Positions 3,246-19,164 of a stretch of 19,775 bases of DNA are shown piece by piece. The translations under genes and the position numbers were made by a program. The first letter of the stretch is position 1. Each line of letters opens with the position of its first letter. The notes beneath the pieces were generated by a model, which was not told the DNA's origin, made no database searches, and worked only from the letters and a program-made list of their open reading frames with translations. Origin of the DNA: a virus (Duplodnaviria > Heunggongvirae > Uroviricota > Caudoviricetes); IMG/VR virus record IMGVR_UViG_2563366917_000005, one strand, 5' to 3'.

Positions 3246-3637
3246 AACACACTGACATTCGTGCCGCAGTGCTGGATGCACTCGAGCAGCATGAACACGG
3301 GGCGACGCTGTTTGATGGTCGCCCCGTTGTTTTTGACGAAGAGGATTTTCCTGCGATCGCGGTTTATCTGACGGATGCAGAGTATACCGGTGAAGAGCTG
3401 GATGCAGATACCTGGCGGGCCACGCTGCATATTGAGGTGTTTTTACCGGCACAGGTACCGGATTCAGAGCTTGATCAGTGGATGGAAAGCCGGATTTACC
3501 CGGCGATGACCGCGATCCCGGCACTGGCAGGACTGATTACCACGATGGTTACGCAGGGCTATGAGTATCGTCGTGATGACGATATGGCGTTATGGAGTTC
3601 TGCAGATCTGACTTATTCCATTACATACGAGATGTGA
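3242..3637 (+). CDS. U: Tail tube terminator protein, gpU-like
   Basis: 131 aa; [63 protein letters not shown]; ATGA overlap with Z. Confidence 0.9.
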
Positions 3638-8870: not shown

Positions 8871-9614
8871 ATGACACAGACTGAATCAGCGATTCTGGCG
8901 CATGCCCGGCGGTGTGCGCCTGCGGAGTCGTGCGGCTTCGTGATAAGCACGCCGGAGGGGGAGTGGTATATCCCTTGTGTGAATATTTCTGCAGAGCCGG
9001 AGGCGTATTTTCGTATCGCACCGGAAGACTGGCTGCGGGCAGAGATGCAGGGGGAGATTGTGGCACTGGTCCACAGTCATCCCGGTGGGCTGCCCTGGCT
9101 GAGCGAGGCTGACCGGCGGCTGCAGATAAAAAGCGCACTGCCCTGGTGGCTGGTCTGCCGGGGTGACATTCACAAATTCCGCTGCGTGCCGCACCTGACG
9201 GGACGGCGCTTTGAGCACGGGGTGACGGACTGTTACACCCTGTTCCGGGATGCATACCATCTGGCGGGGACTGAAATGCCGGATTTTCATCGCGAGGATG
9301 ACTGGTGGCGCCACGGTCAGAACCTTTACCTGGACAATATGGCGGTCACCGGCTTTTACCGGGTGCCCCTGTCCTCTGCACAGGCGGGCGATATTCTGCT
9401 GTGCTGCTTTGGTGCTTCGGTACCGAACCATGCCGCCATTTACTGCGGCAACGGTGAGCTGCTTCACCATCTGCCTGAACAACTGAGTAAACGGGAGAGG
9501 TATTCCGAAAAATGGCAACGACGAACGCATTCTGTCTGGCGTCACCGCCACTGGCACGCATCTGCCTTCACGGGGATTTGCAACGATTTGGCCGCCGCCT
9601 CAGCCTGTATGTGA
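8871..9614 (+). CDS. K: Tail tip assembly protein, gpK-like (JAMM/MPN+ and NlpC/P60-like domains)
   Basis: Start at the ATG at 8871 (MTQTESAILAHARRCAPAESCGFV...), not the ORF-track upstream extension. JAMM motif H-x-H-x7-S-x2-D is present (VHSHPGGLPWLSEAD), and DCYTLF...H suggests a Cys-His NlpC/P60-type segment. Strong lambda K similarity. Confidence 0.9.
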   Translation: MTQTESAILAHARRCAPAESCGFVISTPEGEWYIPCVNISAEPEAYFRIAPEDWLRAEMQGEIVALVHSHPGGLPWLSEADRRLQIKSALPWWLVCRGDIHKFRCVPHLTGRRFEHGVTDCYTLFRDAYHLAGTEMPDFHREDDWWRHGQNLYLDNMAVTGFYRVPLSSAQAGDILLCCFGASVPNHAAIYCGNGELLHHLPEQLSKRERYSEKWQRRTHSVWRHRHWHASAFTGICNDLAAASACM

Positions 9615-10192
9615 ACACGGCAGCGGAAGCCATTCGCGCCCTGTCGATGCAGATGCCGGGCTTTCGCCGTCAGATGAACGAAGGCTGGTACCAGATACGT
9701 ATTGCCGGTGATGACACGGCACCGGAGGCGGTGTATGCCCGTCTTCACGAACAGCTGGGTGAGGGAACGGTCATCCACATTGTGCCGCGACTGGCCGGGG
9801 CCGGAAAGGGTGGACTGCAGATTGTGCTGGGGGCGGCAGCCATCGTGGGCTCTTTCTTCACGGCCGGAGGCTCGATGGCGTTATGGGGTACAGCCCTGAG
9901 TGCCGGTGGTTTTTCTGCCACCACGATGCTGTTTTCACTGGGTGCCAGCATGATACTGGGCGGAGTGGCCCAGATGCTGGCCCCGAAGGCAAAAACACCG
10001 GATTACCGCGCAACGGATAACGGCAGACAGAACACGTACTTTTCCTCGCTGGATAACATGATTGCCCAGGGGAACCCGATGCCGGTGCCTTACGGGGAAA
10101 TGCTGGTTGGCTCCCGCCGTATATCCCAGGACATCAGCACCCGTGATGAAGGCGGGGGCGGAAAGGTCGTGGTTATCGGGCGGCAGGGGTAA
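9512..10192 (+). CDS. I: Tail tip assembly protein, gpI-like
   Basis: 226 aa; ARICL.GDLQRFGRR, W.YQ.RIAG, VIHIVPR.AGA, QIVLGAAAI.GSFFTAG, FSLGASM.LGGVAQMLAPKA.TP, DNG.QNTYFSSLDNM.AQGN; begins about 100 nt inside the 3' end of K in another frame, as in lambda. Confidence 0.9.
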   Translation: MATTNAFCLASPPLARICLHGDLQRFGRRLSLYVNTAAEAIRALSMQMPGFRRQMNEGWYQIRIAGDDTAPEAVYARLHEQLGEGTVIHIVPRLAGAGKGGLQIVLGAAAIVGSFFTAGGSMALWGTALSAGGFSATTMLFSLGASMILGGVAQMLAPKAKTPDYRATDNGRQNTYFSSLDNMIAQGNPMPVPYGEMLVGSRRISQDISTRDEGGGGKVVVIGRQG

Positions 10193-10238
10193 AAAGAATA
10201 AAAAAATCCCGCAGTGATCGCGGACAGGAACTGCGGGA
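10193..10238 (-). terminator. Minus-strand intrinsic terminator abutting the I stop codon (ucccgcag/cugcggga stem, then UUUUUUUAUUCUUU on the minus strand)
   Basis: 8 bp inverted repeat at 10207-10214 and 10231-10238 with a 16 nt loop. On the minus strand the hairpin is followed by a run of U's (the + strand A-tract 10193-10206). On the + strand the downstream sequence is not U-rich, so it should not stop late transcription into J. Confidence 0.5.
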
Positions 10239-10296
10239 GAGTTACGAAGATTAAGTGTAAGGAATTATTCTTATATCACGACAAAAAAATTAACGC
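10195..10296 (-). ncRNA. Candidate ~100 nt small RNA (minus strand) in the I-J intergenic insert; identity unknown
   Basis: Bounded by a perfect TATAAT -10 (minus strand, + coordinates 10303-10308) and the minus-strand terminator at 10193-10238. It has no plausible ORF and is AU-rich with a 3' hairpin plus U-tail, the usual layout of Hfq-type sRNAs. Ends are predicted, not measured. Confidence 0.3.
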
Positions 10297-10302
10297 AGAG
10301 AA

Positions 10303-10332
10303 ATTATACGCGCCACAGTCAGTGTGTGAAAA
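10303..10332 (-). promoter_or_regulatory. Putative sigma70 promoter on the minus strand: -35 TTTTCA, 18 nt spacer, -10 TATAAT
   Basis: Reverse complement of 10303-10308 is TATAAT; reverse complement of 10327-10332 is TTTTCA. It points toward the terminator at 10193-10238. Confidence 0.3.
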
Positions 10333-10403
10333 TGTGAAGATATTCAGAATTTTTATGCCATTACCGGTTTTAACCAACAGGATTATCGGTGGGCATGAAA
10401 GAA

Positions 10404-10438
10404 AACCCCGGTATCTGCTGATACCGGGGTTTCTCTTT
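10404..10438. terminator. Strong bidirectional intrinsic terminator hairpin in the I-J intergenic region (12 bp perfect stem aaccccgguauc/gauaccgggguu, 4 nt loop)
   Basis: Perfect inverted repeat at 10404-10415 and 10420-10431. It is followed on the + strand by UUCUCUUU and on the minus strand by UUCUUUC. Confidence 0.55.
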
Positions 10439-10535
10439 AGCATGGCAGAAATGTGTTTCATGCTTTTCGGGCGAAGGATATCCGACTTCTGTACGGAATG
10501 GCAAGTGGCGGTTAATTTATTCAGGGGAAGGCTGT

Positions 10536-13500
10536 ATGGGAAAAGGTGGCGGTAAGGCACACACGCCTCGTGAGGCGAAGGATAATCTCAAATCCACGCA
10601 GATGATGAGTGTGATTGATGCGATTGGTGAGGGACCGATAGAAGGTCCGGTGAAGGGACTGCAGAGTATTCTGGTGAACAAAACCCCGCTGACGGACACG
10701 GACGGTAATCCCGTGATACACGGTGTGACCGCGGTCTGGCGTGCCGGGGAGCAGGAGCAGACACCACCGGAAGGCTTTGAGTCCTCCGGAGCTGAAACCG
10801 GACTGGGCGTGGAAGTGACGAAGGCAAAACCGGTGACGCGCACCATTACGTCCGCGAACATTGACCGCCTGCGGGTTACCTTCGGGGTGCAGTCACTGGT
10901 GGAGACCACCTCAAAGGGTGACCGTAACCCGGCAACCGTCCGCCTGCTGATTCAGTTACAGCGTAACGGTAACTGGGTGACAGAAAAGGACGTCACCATT
11001 AACGGCAAGACCACCTCACAGTTCCTGGCCTCGGTGATTCTGGATAATCTGCCTCCCCGGCCCTTTAACATCCGGATGGTCAGGGAGACGGCGGACAGCA
11101 CCACGGACCAGCTGCAGAATAAGACGCTGTGGTCGTCATACACCGAAATCATCGATGTGAAACAGTGCTACCCGAACACGGCCATTGTGGGGCTGCAGGT
11201 GGATGCGGAGCAGTTCGGCGGCCAGCAGATGACGGTGAACTACCATATCCGCGGTCGTATCATCCAGGTGCCGTCAAACTATGACCCGGAAAAACGCACG
11301 TACAGTGGTATCTGGGACGGCAGTCTGAAACCGGCATACAGCAACAACCCGGCCTGGTGCCTGTGGGACATGCTGACTCACCCGCGCTACGGCATGGGAA
11401 AACGTCTGGGGGCGGCGGATGTGGACAAGTGGGCGCTGTATGCCATCGGGCAGTACTGCGATCAGACGGTCCCGGATGGTTTCGGGGGGACCGAGCCGCG
11501 GATGACCTTTAATGCGTACCTGGCACAACAGCGTAAGGCGTGGGACGTTCTCAGTGATTTCTGCTCTGCGATGCGCTGTATGCCGGTATGGAACGGTCAG
11601 ACGCTGACGTTCGTTCAGGACCGCCCGTCGGATGTGGTGTGGCCGTACACCAACAGCGATGTGGTGGTGGATGATAACGGCGTGGGATTCCGCTACAGCT
11701 TCAGTGCCCTGAAGGACCGGCACACGGCGGTGGAGGTGAATTACACCGACCCGCAGAACGGCTGGCAGACCTCCACGGAACTGGTGGAAGACCCGGAAGC
11801 CATACTGCGCTACGGACGCAACCTGCTGAAGATGGACGCGTTCGGCTGTACCAGCCGCGGTCAGGCCCACCGTGCCGGACTGTGGGTGATAAAGACCGAA
11901 CTGCTGGAAACGCAGACGGTGGATTTCACGCTCGGGTCTCAGGGGCTGCGGCACACACCCGGTGACATCATTGAAATCTGTGATAACGACTATGCCGGGA
12001 CCCTGACCGGCGGACGTGTCCTGTCCATTGATGCTGCCACCCGCACCCTGACGCTGGACCGTGAAGTGACACTTCCGGAGACCGGTGCCGCCACGGTGAA
12101 CCTGATTAACGGCAGCGGTAAGCCAGTGAGTGTGGACATCACCGAACACCCCGCGCCGGACCGGATACAGGTCAGTACCCTGCCTGATGGTGTGGAGACA
12201 TACGGGGTGTGGGGACTCTCCCTGCCGTCACTGCGCCGTCGCCTGTTCCGCTGTGTCTCCGTCCGGGAAAACACGGACGGCACCTTTGCCATCACGGCGG
12301 TGCAGCACGTACCGGAAAAAGAAGCCATCGTGGATAACGGTGCCCGCTTTGAGCCGCAGTCAGGTTCCCTGAACAGCGTCATCCCACCGGCAGTGCAGCA
12401 CCTGACGGTGGAGGTGAGCGCAGCTGACGGCCAGTATCTGGCGCAGGCGAAATGGGACACGCCGCGGGTGGTGAAGGGTGTGCGCTTCAGTCTGCGCCTG
12501 ACCAGTGGTAAGGGAACGGATGCCAGACTGGTGACCACCGCTATCACCGCAGACACGGAGCACCGTTTCAGCGGCCTGCCGCTCGGGGAATACACCCTGA
12601 CGGTGCGGGCGATAAACAGCTATGGCCAGCAGGGTGAACCTGCCACCACCACCTTCCGGATTGCCGCACCGGCAGCACCGTCGCGGATTGAGCTGACGCC
12701 GGGCTATTTTCAGATAACCGCCACGCCGCATCTTGCCGTTTATGACCCGACGGTACAGTTTGAGTTCTGGTTCTCGGAAAAGCGGATTGCGGATATCAGG
12801 CAGGTTGAAACCGCAGCCCGCTATCTTGGCTCGGCGCTGTACTGGATAGCTGCCAGTATCAATATCAAACCGGGCCATGATTATTATTTTTATATCCGCA
12901 GTGTGAATACTGTTGGCAAATCGGCATTCGTGGAGGCTGTCGGTCGGGCGAGCGATGATGCGGAAGGTTACCTGGATTTTTTCAAAGGAGAAATCGGGAA
13001 AACACATCTGGCCCAGGAGCTGTGGACGCAGATTGATAACGGTCAGCTTGCGCCGGACCTGGCTGAAATCAGGACGTCCATTACGAATGTCAGCAATGAA
13101 ATCACGCAGACCGTCAATAAAAAACTGGAAAATCAGAGTGCGGCAATCCAGCAGATACAGAAAGTTCAGGTTGATACAAATAATAACCTGAACAGCATGT
13201 GGGCCGTGAAACTGCAGCAGATGCAGGACGGACGCCTTTATATTGCGGGTATCGGTGCCGGTATTGAGAATACGCCAGCAGGAATGCAGAGTCAGGTGCT
13301 GCTGGCGGCAGACAGGATTGCGATGATTAATCCTGCGAATGGCAACACAAAGCCGATGTTTGTTGGTCAGGGCGATCAGATATTTATGAATGAAGTGTTC
13401 CTGAAATATCTGACGGCTCCCACCATTACCAGCGGCGGTAATCCTCCGGCATTTTCCCTGACACCGGACGGGCGGCTGACGGCGAAAAATGCCGATATCA

Positions 13501-14009
13501 GCGGTAACGTGAATGCGAACTCCGGGACGCTCAACAACGTCACGATTAACGAGAACTGTCGGGTTCTGGGAAAATTGTCCGCGAACCAGATTGAAGGCGA
13601 TCTCGTTAAAACAGTGGGCAAAGCTTTCCCCCGGGACTCCCGTGCACCGGAGCGGTGGCCATCAGGAACCATTACCGTCAGGGTTTATGACGATCAGCCG
13701 TTTGACCGGCAGATTGTTATTCCGGCGGTGGCATTCAGCGGCGCTAAACATGAGAAAGAGCATACTGATATTTACTCCTCATGCCGTCTGATAGTGCGGA
13801 AAAACGGTGCTGAAATTTATAACCGTACCGCGCTGGATAATACGCTGATTTACAGTGGTGTTATTGATATGCCTGCCGGTCACGGTCACATGACACTGGA
13901 GTTTTCGGTGTCAGCATGGCTGGTAAATAACTGGTATCCCACAGCAAGTATCAGCGATTTGCTGGTTGTGGTGATGAAGAAAGCCACTGCAGGCATCACG
14001 ATTAGCTGA
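10536..14009 (+). CDS. J: Central tail fibre / host specificity protein, gpJ-like
   Basis: 1157 aa; N-terminus [22 protein letters not shown] and long blocks match lambda J by recollection; RBS ggggaagg upstream. A central patch (about aa 820-890) and the last ~100 aa diverge from lambda. Confidence 0.95.
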
Positions 14010-14827: not shown

Positions 14828-17800
14828 ATGACAGTAAAAATTTCTGGCGTGCTTAAAGATGGCACAGGAAAACCAGTACAGAACTGCACCATTGTGCTGA
14901 AGGCCAGACGAACCAGCAGCACGGTGGTGGTGAACACGGTGGCCTCTGAAAATCCGGATGAAGCCGGACGTTACAGCATGGATGTTGAGCATGGTCAGTA
15001 CAGCGTCACCCTGCTGGTTGAAGGTTTTCCGCCTTCACATGCCGGGACCATTACCGTCTATGAAGGTTCCAGATCAGGTACGCTGAATGATTTTCTCGGT
15101 GCCATGACGGAGGATGATGTCCGACCGGAGGCACTGCGCCGCTTTGAGCAGATGGTGGAAGAGGTGTCACGTAACGCCTCCGCGGTTGCACAGAATACGG
15201 CAGCCGCGAAAAAATCAGCCAGCGATGCCAGTGCATCAGCCAGCGAGGCGGCAACTCATGCAACCGATGCTGCAGCCTCAGCACGTGCCGCCAGCACGTC
15301 AGCCGGACAGGCCGCGTCGTCGGCTCAGTCAGCGTCTTCCAGCGCAGGAACGGCATCGACAAAGACCCGTGAAGCAGCAAAAAGTGCTGCTGCTGCTGCA
15401 GAGTCATCAAAAAGCGCGGCAGCTACCAGCGCCAGTGCCGCGAAAACGTCAGAAACGAATGCCGCAGCATCACAAAAATCGGCAGCCACTTCTGCATCCA
15501 CAGCGACCACGAAGGCGTCAGAAGCTGCCACCTCGGCACGGGGTGCGGCGACCTCAAAAGAGGCAGCGAAATCTTCAGAAACGAATGCATCATCAAGTGC
15601 CAGTAGTGCAGCTTCCTCGGCAACGGCGGCAGGAAATTCCGCGAAGGCGGCAAAAACGTCCGAGACGAACGCTAAGTCTTCTGAAACAGCAGCGGGACAG
15701 AGCGCCTCAGCTGCGGCAGGTTCAAAAACAGCGGCTGCATTATCTGCCAGTGCCGCGTCAACAAGTGCCGGGCAGGCCTCAGCCAGTGCCACCGCCGCCG
15801 GAAAATCGGCAGAAAGCGCCGCATCATCCGCTTCAACAGCCACAACGAAGGCTGGCAAAGCCACTGAGCAAGCCACTGCAGCAGCGAGGTCTGCTTCTGC
15901 AGCAAAAACCTCTGAAACAAATGCAAAGACTTCAGCAGACAATGCTGCTTCCTCTAAGGCGGCAGCCGCATCGTCAGCCAGTTCAGCGGCGTCATCGGCA
16001 TCATCTGCGTCTGCTTCAAAAGATGAGGCGACCAGACAAGCGTCAGCAGCGAAAGGTAGTGCCACGACAGCAACAACGAAAGCATCAGAGGCGGCAGGCA
16101 GTGCGACGGCTGCATCTCAGAGCAAAGTTGCTGCTGAATCCGCGGCAACGCGCGCCGAGACAGCAGCAAAACGGGCAGAGGATATTGCATCCGCCGTGGC
16201 GCTGGAGGATGCGAGCACGACGAAAAAGGGGATAGTACAGCTCAGCAGTGCAACAAACAGCACCAGTGAAAAGCTGGCGGCAACGCCAAAGGCAGTTAAA
16301 ACTGTTAAAGATAGTTCAGTTCAAAAAACTGGCGACACAATGGGAGGGCAGTTAAAAATCAGCACGATAAATGCTCTTCGAATATTCAACCAAGCCTTTG
16401 GCCTTATTTTTAGGCGTTCCGAAGATCATCTTCATCTTATTCCGACTAATGAAGGGGAGGGGGAAAATGGAGACATCGGTTCATTAAGACCATTCTCTAT
16501 AAACTTAAGATCAGGGTTGGTGTCCATCGGTAATGGACTAAAAGTTGGTGGTAGTGTTACTGGTAATTTGACCGGAAACGCAGATACTGCGACCAAGATC
16601 AAGACAGCACGTAAGATTGGGGGCGTGGCATTTGATGGATCGGCAGATATCAACTTGCCTGGAGTCAACGCTACCGGTAATCAAAACACTACAGGTAATG
16701 CTGCGACCGCCACGAAACTTCAGGCAGCCAGAACGATTAACGGTGTGTCATTTGATGGTAGTGCAAATATCACATTGACCCCTTCAAATATTGGGGCATT
16801 GGCATTAACTGGAGGGACTCTTTCAGGTGGTTTAACTGCTGCTGGTGAGGTTATTTCAAGGTCAGCAAATGGTCTGCGTATTGCCTATGGCAACTATGGA
16901 TTCTTTATCCGAAATGATGGATCAAACACATATTTTATGTTGACAGATTCGGGTAACAGTCTTGGTACGCACAATAGCTTAAGGCCGTTTATAATTAGTA
17001 ACCATACTGGCAATGTTACAATTGCAACTAAATTAAACGCGAGTGGTGGTATCACTGGATCTTTATCGGGTAATGCAAGCACAGCAACCAAATTGCAAAC
17101 TGCAAGGACAATTAACGGCGTAAAATTTGACGGCTCGGCAAATATTGAAGCGTTTCCGCCAGGTGTTCCGCTGCCGTGGCCATCAGATACACCACCTGCA
17201 GGTTATGCAATCATGCAGGGGCAGACGTTTGATAAGGCAGCATATCCGAAACTGGCTATTGCCTATCCTTCAGGTGTTATTCCAGATATGCGCGGCTGGA
17301 CAATCAAGGGCAAACCCGCCAGTGGCCGGGCCGTATTGTCTCAGGAACAGGACGGCATTAAATCGCACACCCACAGCGCCAGCGCATCCAGTACGGATTT
17401 GGGGACGAAAACCACATCGTCGTTTGATTACGGCACTAAATCCACGAATAACACCGGGGCGCATACGCACAGTCTGAGTGGCTCTACGGGGTCTGCCGGT
17501 GTTCATACTCATGGTAATGGTATTCGTTGGCCAGGAGGCGGCGGTTCTGCGTTAGCATTTTATGATGGCGGTGGGTTCACTTATGTCCAGAATTCACAGT
17601 ATCAAGTAAGCCCGGAGACTTCTTCCTATAGATCGTATTATCAACGTATTCAGACACAGTCAGCAGGTGCTCATACCCACTCGCTGTCTGGTACTGCAGC
17701 AAGTTCTGGCGCACATGCACATACTGTAGGTATTGGTGCGCATACGCACTCCGTTGCGATTGGTTCACATGGACACACCATCACCGTTAACGCTGCGGGT

Positions 17801-17857
17801 AACGCGGAAAACACCGTCAAAAACATCGCATTTAACTATATTGTGAGGCTTGCATAA
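14828..17857 (+). CDS. stf: Side tail fibre protein, Stf-like (1009 aa; expanded Ala/Ser shaft, central tail-fibre repeat module, His-motif C-terminal region)
   Basis: N-terminus [22 protein letters not shown]...[14 protein letters not shown] and C-terminus ...[31 protein letters not shown] match lambda Stf by recollection. It contains three copies of the TATK(I/L)(K/Q)TAR.I.GV.FDGSA.I repeat and several (S/A)H(T/A/G)H(S/T) motifs. Confidence 0.9.
15200..16200 (+). repeat. Imperfect in-frame tandem repeats encoding the Ala/Ser/Thr-rich Stf shaft (recurring AAKTSETNA and SASxA units)
   Basis: Recurring DNA units such as gcgaaaacgtcagaaacgaatgc and gcaaaaacctctgaaacaaatgc; GC-rich in both strands, which creates spurious long ORFs in other frames. 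Confidence 0.6.
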
Positions 17858-18441
17858 TGGCATTCAGAATGAGTGAACAAGCACGGACCATAAAAATTTA
17901 TAATCTGCTGGCCGGAACTAATGAATTTATTGGTGAAGGTGACGCATATATTCCGCCTCATACAGGTCTGCCAGCAAACAGTACCGATATTGCACCACCA
18001 GATATTCCTGCTGGCTTTGTGGCTGTTTTCAACAGTGATGAGGCATCGTGGCATCTCGTTGAAGACCATCGGGGTAAAACGGTTTATGACGTAGCGTCAG
18101 GGGACGAGTTATTTATTTCTGAACTCGGTCCGTTACCGGAAAATGTTACCTGGTTATCGCCGGAAGGGGAGTTTCAGAAGTGGAACGGCACAGCCTGGGT
18201 GAAGGATACGGAAGCAGAAAAACTGTTCCGGATCCGGGAGGCGGAAGAAACAAAAAACAACCTGATGCAGGTAGCCAGTGAGCATATTGCGCCGCTTCAG
18301 GATGCTGCAGATCTGGAAATTGCAACGGAGGAAGAAACCTCATTGCTGGAAGCCTGGAAAAAGTATCGGGTGTTGCTGAACCGTGTTGATACATCAACTG
18401 CACCTGATATTGAGTGGCCTACGAACCCTGTCAGGGAGTAA
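17857..18441 (+). CDS. tfa: Tail fibre assembly (chaperone) protein, Tfa-like
   Basis: 194 aa; [82 protein letters not shown]...[26 protein letters not shown], almost identical to lambda Tfa by recollection; 1 nt overlap with the stf stop. Confidence 0.9.
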
Positions 18442-18495: not shown

Positions 18496-19164
18496 CTATT
18501 TTTTCCCTGAAGCGGAAAACATTACTACAGTACCTTGAACCTTGGTTTTAACATTCTCGAAATGCTCTGAGAGTATATGTGTTAAGCCTTCTTCGGAATC
18601 TTTTGTGTTTGAAAAGATGCCTTTCTGATTGTAAATGCGCATCAGTTTTTGACCGAAGCTATTGTGCACAACTCCATCGCCAAGAATTGTGGCTCCGTAT
18701 AGAGTTCCATCGTCAGTTAAGGCCTGCGCCGCATTGCGTATTACACAGCTTTTTGTAGATATATTTCCAGGCAGGCAGTGAAGAAGGTAAAACATGGAAA
18801 TGGAATCAAATTGACCATGTAACGCCGCGGGATAAGGATCAAAAACATCATGGCTAATTTTATGTTTAATTTTTGATTCCCCAGCCCTTGTCGATGCCGC
18901 GTTCAGGCTAGCTTCGTTCAAATCCATTAAAGATATCAGACTACTCTCAGGTACGTGAGTAAGGTAAAACCCAGTTCCAACACCAATATCCAGATGGTTG
19001 TTACCTACATGTTCCAGAAAGTGTGGAAGAAGGTGTTCCTTTGTAGGACATCCCCATGCAAGCCGATTTGATACTCCCAAAACCCACCAGTCATAAAGCT
19101 TTAGGGTAAGTGGTGTGTAAATTTTAGCCCCATCATCTGTGTTTTTTTTCATTGATTTCACCAT
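18496..19164 (-). CDS. Class I SAM-dependent methyltransferase-like protein (small-molecule or protein type, not a DNA methyltransferase); low-GC cargo gene
   Basis: 222 aa; Rossmann motif I LDIGVGTGFY, an acidic residue at the end of beta-2 (LISLMDLNE), a motif II-like DSISMFYLLHCLPG, and an N-terminal YDWW...AWG segment. No DPPY/NPPY or C5-methyltransferase motifs. Visibly AT-richer than the tail genes. The true start may be the second ATG (19152), given the promoter position. The arrangement recalls the DLP12 tfaD-ybcY-tfaX locus of E. coli K-12, as far as I remember it. Confidence 0.6.
   Translation of the reverse strand: MVKSMKKNTDDGAKIYTPLTLKLYDWWVLGVSNRLAWGCPTKEHLLPHFLEHVGNNHLDIGVGTGFYLTHVPESSLISLMDLNEASLNAASTRAGESKIKHKISHDVFDPYPAALHGQFDSISMFYLLHCLPGNISTKSCVIRNAAQALTDDGTLYGATILGDGVVHNSFGQKLMRIYNQKGIFSNTKDSEEGLTHILSEHFENVKTKVQGTVVMFSASGKK

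Follow-up and report, generated by a model that had tools for sequence, protein, structure and literature searches.

Why are the tail genes I and J so far apart in the phage sequence of IMG/VR virus record IMGVR_UViG_2563366917_000005 (Caudoviricetes), and what does the DNA between them encode? In the 19,775 nucleotides analysed (the window, whose own numbering is used below), 343 bp separate the TAA stop codon of I (10190-10192) from the ATG of J (10536), compared with 60 bp in lambda (I end 15444, J start 15505), and GC content is 0.39-0.43 within the gap compared with 0.58-0.63 in both flanks. A sequence-only reading of this stretch, made before any database was searched, had put the lambda genes only a few tens of nucleotides apart and had called the gap AT-richer than its surroundings, with which these figures agree, and it had proposed that the gap carries a stand-alone minus-strand regulatory RNA of the Hfq type. 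We find that the gap holds a promoter-to-terminator unit that, judged by its sequence and position, belongs to an already described family of prophage small RNAs (sRNAs), detected in 2014, named PasB in 2021, and surveyed in 2026. We regard it as highly probable that the unit is a moron of the phage encoding a member of the PasB / EcOnc22-24 family, an sRNA that is expressed in the lysogen, depends on Hfq, and acts in trans by base pairing.

The identification rests in the first place on PasB of enteropathogenic Escherichia coli (EPEC) O127:H6 E2348/69, an 83-nt RNA encoded in prophage PP6 on the minus strand of NC_011601.1 at 1466343..1466261 (PMC8550237, Table S6). On Northern blots the probe AATCCCGCAGTGATCGCGGAGCT detected it at the size expected (Pearl Mizrahi et al., 2021, Sci Adv, PMC8550237), and the same study reports that PasB is expressed more under the non-activating condition, that its log2 fold change in a delta-hfq strain is -6.8 under the activating and -2.4 under the non-activating condition, and that RIL-seq, in which interacting RNAs are ligated and sequenced, recovered 37 interactions, including core, type III secretion system, and bfp transcripts. 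At the EPEC locus, the 3' end of PasB lies 6 nt past the stop codon of I (annotated as 'tail assembly protein') and PasB precedes gpJ; the unit in the window occupies the same I-J position, antisense to the tail genes, with its 3' end adjoining the I stop. Pairwise alignment shows the promoter block TTCACATTTTCACACACTGACTGTGGCGCxTATAAT to be near-identical between the two, the 25-nt terminator plus tail TCCGCGATCACTGCGGGATTTTTTT is identical, and 20 of the 23 nucleotides of the PasB probe match the window at 10205-10224. Both hallmarks of the family are present in the window: its promoter, TTCACA-TT-TTCACA followed by xATAAT and CTGCGTTA (by the EPEC alignment, a BLAST-derived multi-locus alignment, and a conservation profile), and its terminator, CCCGCAG...CUGCGGGA with at least six U, the region under the PasB probe. 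Both RNAs have an ARN tract, then (C/U)UCCUU, then an AUCUUC motif. They differ in the terminator loop, which is 5 nt longer in the window, and in the spacer to J, which is 95 nt in EPEC and 197 nt in the window.

A second set of relatives comes from E. coli O157:H7 Sakai, in which EcOnc22 (Sp15), EcOnc23 (Sp14), and EcOnc24 (Sp11) were recorded as homologous peaks of Hfq cross-linking and cDNA analysis (Hfq-CRAC; Tree et al., 2014, Mol Cell, PMC4104026, Table S2), with Northern signals of ~85 nt that were destabilised in delta-hfq (PMC4104026). All three sets of coordinates fall in I-J gaps of Sakai, antisense to the tail genes, and once they are corrected for an offset of the current RefSeq version of +137 to +146 from the published numbering (anchored on AgvB1), the peaks lie inside the sRNA body. 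The Northern probe for EcOnc22/23/24 (Table S3C), read as its reverse complement, matches the sRNA of the Sp15 gap exactly over 23 nt and at 31 of 33 positions overall. EcOnc22-24 share with the window the same promoter architecture, the UUAAUCUUC motif, and the CCCGCAG/CUGCGGG terminator, and are unlike it in having an AATAAT -10 hexamer, a short spacer, and a body of the form GAUGCCUGAAAAAUAACUCCAUAAC... From the probe match and the coordinates we infer that EcOnc22-24 (2014) and PasB (2021) are one family. Neither Pas paper (2021, 2026) draws this link: EHEC (enterohaemorrhagic E. coli) homologues are noted for PasA and PasD, not for PasB (PMC8550237, Table S6), and EcOnc is unmentioned in the 2026 PasB survey (Zhu, Shabalina and Storz, bioRxiv 10.64898/2026.05.13.724894). 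A 2021 review lists the target of EcOnc22-24 as 'unknown' (PMC7873438).

Homology in position and sequence to PasB and EcOnc22/23/24 thus supports the regulatory RNA of the sequence-only reading, which could assign it to no named family and had allowed that it might prove to be an already described element. The name came from the literature: Rfam 15 gives no gathering-level match in 10193-10535, and its best sub-threshold matches (STnc310, CopA, and others, all with E of at least 0.05) fall on a second hairpin in the gap and reflect its generic 12-bp stem. The sRNA of the Sakai homologue is likewise without an Rfam match, and a full-text literature search with fragments of the window allele returned no match.

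The sigma-70 promoter of the unit (10303..10346, minus strand) agrees with the consensus at 11 of 12 positions. It and the EPEC PasB promoter are near-identical, and it is kept in the BLAST-derived loci, which were gathered with no pattern selection. Its -10 hexamer is the perfect TATAAT at 10308..10303 that the sequence-only reading had located; the -35 hexamer chosen there, TTTTCA with an 18-nt spacer, agrees with the consensus at 10 of 12 positions and is outscored by the scan's preferred choice, TTCACA at 10330..10325, spaced by 16 nt (11 of 12). The region holds three promoter-like sites, compared with 0.6 +/- 0.9 in shuffled sequences. Upstream of the -35 hexamer stands a second direct repeat, TTCACA at 10338..10333, so that the two together read TTCACA-TT-TTCACA (10325-10338, minus strand), and upstream of the repeats lies a conserved A/T-rich block, AAAAATTCTGAATATC. 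This conserved sequence beyond the -35 hexamer hints at a regulator-binding site or an UP element.

With a start 7 nt beyond the -10 hexamer, the predicted primary transcript is 97 nt long (10200..10296, minus strand), and homology to the annotated 5' end of EPEC PasB predicts a mature RNA of 84 nt (10283..10200); these boundaries are drawn from the alignment to the EPEC PasB locus, folding, and the published PasB coordinates. About 60 nt downstream lies the intrinsic terminator, which together with the Hfq 3' module spans 10200..10238 on the minus strand and consists of a 9-bp stem, UCCCGCAGU/ACUGCGGGA (10238..10207), followed by U7 (10206..10200). Beyond U7, AUUCUUUUU runs to the stop codon of I, which lies 8 nt from the end of the tail. 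Because no T-run follows the stem on the plus strand, the terminator is unidirectional, as the sequence-only reading had it, with a stem of 9 bp in place of the 8 bp counted there.

Outside the terminator, folding predicts the RNA body to be unpaired. Alignment and consensus fold single out two near-invariant unpaired motifs at 10244..10263 (minus strand), UCCUUA (10263..10258) and UUAAUCUUCGU (10254..10244), which are candidates for a seed and/or a U-rich Hfq site upstream of the terminator. The sequence UCCUU is complementary to the Shine-Dalgarno core AAGGA, which suggests that it may act by occluding ribosome-binding sites. Next to these motifs, at 10264..10272 (minus strand), lies AAGAAUAAU, an (ARN)3 tract that may be bound by the distal face of Hfq. 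By motif counts, 43 of 49 distinct alleles have at least three ARN triplets in a row here, compared with 3.5% of shuffles, and the A-rich tract retains its A-R-N periodicity although its sequence changes. A Rho-independent terminator, a poly-U tail, and an internal (ARN)n with n of at least 3, the features of a 'class II'-like Hfq sRNA, are all found here, the binding face itself being a prediction.

These elements can be followed across a set of loci that comprises 14 BLAST-derived E. coli loci spanning the range of identity, the three Sakai loci, IMG/VR loci retrieved by a pattern of three motifs (TTCACATTT, CTGCGTTA, and CTGCGGGATTTTT), the window, and EPEC. Among them the promoter-to-terminator unit occurs in 145 copies with 54 distinct sequences. 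The profile and the alignment show the same conserved elements throughout: the A/T-rich block, the two TTCACA repeats, the xATAAT -10 hexamer, the first bases GCGUUA with a U-run, the A-rich tract, (C/U)UCCUUA, UUAAUCUUC(G/A)U, and the terminator, with variable sequence between them. Promoter and terminator are better conserved than the body, and alleles are 60-75% identical. RNAalifold applied to 27 diverse alleles returns a 7-bp terminator core as the sole consensus structure, and the terminator stem is unchanged in 26 of the 27.

Several observations weigh against a PasB-type sRNA in the window or limit what can be said of it. Conservation of the three retrieval motifs TTCACATTT, CTGCGTTA, and CTGCGGGATTTTT in the IMG/VR subset is there by construction, because retrieval required them; the sole independent test is given by the pattern-free BLAST loci (L002-L015), in which the same conservation pattern is seen. 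PasB as annotated starts 22 nt past the -10 hexamer, compared with the usual ~7 nt, an offset that would fit either a later start site or a processing step. RNAalifold gives no covariation support for the terminator among the 27 alleles, and since the stem never varies, covariation neither supports nor refutes it; the terminator of the L015 type (CUCCCGU/ACGGGAG), out of register in the alignment, is not in this count. Expression, size, Hfq dependence, and RIL-seq partners are known for the EPEC and Sakai alleles only (PMC8550237; PMC4104026). Finally, the body of the window allele, which we call W, is only ~60% identical to that of EPEC PasB, so the published PasB partners are not transferable to it. 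By analogy with its relatives, W would be expressed and bound by Hfq, with its own and probably different set of targets.

The divergence of W also bears on how the family has been counted. The window, EPEC, and Sakai alleles share ~74% identity between each pair, and 60-68% outside the 5' leader and the terminator. Queried with the 83-nt EPEC PasB, blastn finds no match in the window at word size 28, and at word size 11 only the 25-nt terminator aligns, for a coverage of 30%. The 2026 survey was run within Escherichia with blastn at word size 28 and query coverage >75%, and its PasB variants differ by a few nucleotides (PasB-2 is C27A; bioRxiv 10.64898/2026.05.13.724894). This change at position 27 corresponds to an O157-type allele (r02) of our collected set. 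Because the survey settings miss the W sequence, the allele class of the window lies outside PasB as described, and the window copy is best classed as a divergent allele or subfamily beyond the surveyed 'variants'. This evidence points to an undercount of the family in the published survey, which would have captured only PasB-like alleles.

How widespread W and its relatives are can be gauged from 5,426 complete E. coli genomes. BLAST with the I-J gap finds matches in 1,669 of them, never annotated, and others in Shiga toxin (Stx)-converting and other lambdoid phages. The promoter-plus-sRNA query occurs at >=99% identity in about 609 genomes (~11%), mostly human isolates among the matches listed for W, and 1,842 genomes carry the family in one allele or another, at 3,569 places. 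Within the collected set, W is the commonest transcribed sequence, with 35 of the 145 copies, and it is also the commonest allele of the IMG/VR sample. A search with the exact three-motif pattern in one genome per species returned only E. albertii and two short contigs, and the family appears confined to Escherichia, in line with the survey. The two contigs, assigned to Parendozoicomonas haliclonae (L022, 460 bp) and Streptomyces flavalbus (L024, 3.4 kb), hold exact PasB-family units and are most likely E. coli or phage contamination. The surroundings of the unit agree with its family as well: the survey found IS009 and IsrG to be the commonest Rfam matches in PasB flanks (bioRxiv 10.64898/2026.05.13.724894), and the window has a PasB-like context, with a phage structural operon and IS009 about 8 kb downstream. 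IsrG was not found in an Rfam scan of the window.

The variation among copies is organised in blocks. Body classes (window-type, PasB-type, EcOnc22-type, and others) pair freely with two types of spacer, and this free combination implies recombination inside the I-J gap. A tentative extension, to which we give somewhat less than even weight, is that the unit forms a modular, fast-diversifying cassette with a fixed promoter, fixed Hfq modules, and a fixed insertion point, in which the body is exchanged and is sometimes present in tandem; W would then control a regulon unlike that of EPEC PasB, and the survey would have undercounted the family, some allele of which about a third of E. coli genomes carry. 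Several loci show unusual arrangements. Three gaps (L013 in NZ_AP027217, 471 bp long, L062, and L117) each hold two different PasB-family sRNA genes in tandem, and two loci (L007 and L026) have an extra, divergent copy of the L015 type with the terminator CUCCCG...CGGGAG. In L014 (NZ_CP148461 223017-224117), I is followed by a window-like body and terminator, other sequence stands in place of the promoter from around the start of transcription onward, and sodC takes the place of J as the next gene; this copy appears to be a truncated remnant left by recombination.

Taken together, the proposed mechanism would run as follows. A small autonomous transcription unit, inserted as a moron between the late genes I and J and oriented against the late operon, would be transcribed in the lysogen from its own sigma-70 promoter to give an RNA of roughly 84-97 nt, ending at the unidirectional intrinsic terminator beside the I stop. 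Hfq would grip this RNA through the 3' hairpin with its U-tail and through the internal (ARN)n tract, and the unstructured body, with UCCUUA and UUAAUCUUC, would pair with host and accessory-genome mRNAs. The resemblance to phage morons (Juhala et al., 2000, as cited in PMC4104026) lies in an extra promoter-gene-terminator unit, with a base composition unlike that of its flanks, between genes that are near-adjacent in lambda. The difference lies in the cargo, which is a non-coding RNA and not a protein gene, and in the orientation of the unit against the late operon.

The same orientation invites another view of its function, in which the RNA would act mainly in the phage as a cis-antisense regulator of the late operon, by directing RNase III cleavage or altering the I/J ratio, or would itself be titrated by late mRNA during lytic growth. 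The gene does lie antisense inside the late operon, its RNA is a perfect complement to the late mRNA at the I-J junction, and the I-J position is strictly kept in 145 of 145 copies. What is known of PasB fits trans action, since many core and accessory transcripts are joined to it in RIL-seq chimeras and uninduced lysogens express it, and the body diverges freely while I and J are conserved, with no sign of co-evolution beyond the trivial complementarity. Nor do the ribosome-binding regions of the window genes stand out as trans targets: the best duplex between the sRNA body and positions -35 to +20 of 17 window genes has an energy of -20.7 kcal/mol, compared with a median best of -21.2 kcal/mol for shuffled sequences, so that no complementarity above the shuffled level is seen. 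A cis-antisense main role is improbable in our judgement, and an effect of this kind may possibly act in addition to trans action.

Slightly less probable still is that the RNA is an anti-sRNA or sponge, which, like AgvB and AsxR, would use its ARN tract to dock on the distal face of Hfq and would sequester a core sRNA instead of repressing mRNAs itself. AgvB and AsxR (Rfam RF02702 and RF02703) resemble the PasB family in being short, prophage-encoded, Hfq-bound RNAs with an ARN motif, and in having a conserved 3' module common to the members and a recognition region that differs. The conserved ARN tract of the I-J unit and its fixed Hfq and terminator modules around a variable recognition part recall this design, and the first PasB chimera in Table S3 of PMC8550237 involves a pasA-flanking intergenic RNA. 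AgvB and AsxR are unlike the window unit in lying at the PR' moron site downstream of Q instead of in the I-J gap and in being 51-60 nt long, compared with about 85 nt here. Neither AgvB nor AsxR has a sequence or covariance-model match in the window, in a scan that detects AgvB in Sakai at 96.5 bits.

Two further explanations fare far worse. The gap could be a recombination scar or decaying remnant with incidental promoter- and terminator-like features, as its mosaic structure, in which body classes and spacer modules recombine freely, and the truncated or promoter-less loci such as L014 beside sodC might suggest; we consider this very unlikely, since the promoter and terminator outlast the body in conservation among alleles 60-75% identical, two alleles are experimentally expressed and Hfq-dependent, and the window allele is conserved at >=99% in about 609 genomes. 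The sequence-only reading had itself allowed for a non-conserved scar without covariation in its hairpins: conservation was found (1,842 of 5,426 genomes), and covariation is uninformative on an invariant stem. Least likely of all, and hardly to be entertained, is that the product comes from one of the open reading frames (ORFs) of the gap, whose lengths are 113 aa (plus strand) and 94 aa and 44 aa (minus strand), since all three lack a Pfam match, start with GTG or TTG, cross the 12-bp hairpin into J and the boundaries of the mosaic modules, and are impossible in short-spacer loci, in which about 100 nt are replaced, so that the earlier verdict of no believable ORF holds even though in a few phage records a 'hypothetical protein' is annotated where the BLAST match lies.

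Between the sRNA promoter and the start codon of J, the window has the 'long' type of spacer, 197 nt at 10339..10535, which is nearly invariant wherever present (about 59 copies); the 'short' type measures 94-104 nt (about 66 copies). The long spacer contains a perfect hairpin of 12-13 bp at 10403..10432 (arms 10403-10415 and 10420-10432, loop 10416-19; -26 to -27 kcal/mol, z -7.1 and -7.7), preceded by A-rich and followed by T-rich sequence on both strands. In both spacer types a GC-rich hairpin is present, and a T-rich run comes after it on the strand of the tail genes. The hairpins of the short modules show a C-G to T-A exchange, CAGGCACC...GGTGCCTG versus CAGGCATC...GATGCCTG, with some mismatched intermediates, and the lambda gap has, on the late strand at lambda 15461-15489 (L146, J02459, 1262-1290), a hairpin of its own, AAACCGCC-tgcg-GGCGGTTT, with TGTCATTT after it. 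Hairpins equivalent in place and different in sequence are thus found upstream of J in every gap variant examined, and look like a conserved junction element. Because the lambda gap has an equivalent, this second hairpin is ancestral to the I-J junction and not part of the sRNA unit, which would have been inserted between the I stop and the junction hairpin. The sequence-only reading was right about its perfect stem and its T-rich flanks on both strands, and its idea of an insulator brought in with the insert does not survive the comparison with lambda. The junction hairpin could serve as a terminator for RNA polymerase without Q modification or as a structure that stabilises or processes the late mRNA.

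Three smaller features of the spacer may be recorded here. One IMG/VR copy with a 150-nt spacer has precisely lost the 12-bp hairpin through a deletion between short repeats (…CATTTCT / TTTCTTTCAT…), so at least one prophage copy can do without it. On the minus strand of the long spacer, at 10395-10504, a weak promoter-like sequence, TTGCCA-18-TATCCT (9 of 12 positions), lies about 70 nt upstream of the 12-bp hairpin with its U-run, and the 74-nt interval folds as two hairpins (-31.9 kcal/mol, z = -7.3); the weak promoter and the fold could mark a second small RNA. Just upstream of the J start, the 7-nt unit CTGATGT (sRNA strand) is present in one to three extra copies between otherwise identical spacers, in short-spacer loci such as L013 and in spacers of 103, 110, and 117 nt, and its copy number reads as a small length polymorphism in the 5' leader of J.

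The genes around the gap are those expected of a lambda-like tail region. To the left lies the gene for tail assembly protein I (9611..10192, plus strand; Pfam PF06805 Lambda_tail_I, E = 1.8e-16, and the RefSeq annotation of an identical locus in strain 7/2), and to the right the gene for the tail tip and host specificity protein J (10536..14009, plus strand; from the ORF list and the RefSeq gpJ annotation of near-identical loci). The strain 7/2 prophage closely matches the window, with an I-J gap that is 100% identical, and its end abuts potB/potA. Downstream of tfa, on the opposite strand, a gene for a class I SAM-dependent methyltransferase occupies 18496-19164 (minus strand) and beyond. 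The sole gathering-level Rfam match in the window is IS009 (RF02111), full-length at 18200-18398 (plus strand, 225 bits), and it falls wholly inside the tail fibre assembly ORF at 17857-18441 (Pfam Caudo_TAP); with a 'non-coding RNA' family inside a conserved coding sequence, whether IS009 is truly an RNA deserves a check.

The current understanding of sRNA biology is unchanged by these findings. What they add is the equation of EcOnc22-24 with PasB, the undercount in the survey, the conserved ARN, UCCUUA, and UUAAUCUUC modules, and the ancestry of the junction hairpin, each at the strength given above. Homology searches with the EPEC sequence overlook some allele classes of the I-J gap sRNA that are ~74% identical to it, and the widespread W allele is a concrete candidate for RIL-seq or CLASH (cross-linking, ligation, and sequencing of hybrids) and for an Rfam model. 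The RIL-seq partners of PasB include EPEC virulence genes (PMC8550237), and prophage sRNAs of this kind tie horizontally acquired DNA to the post-transcriptional networks of the host.

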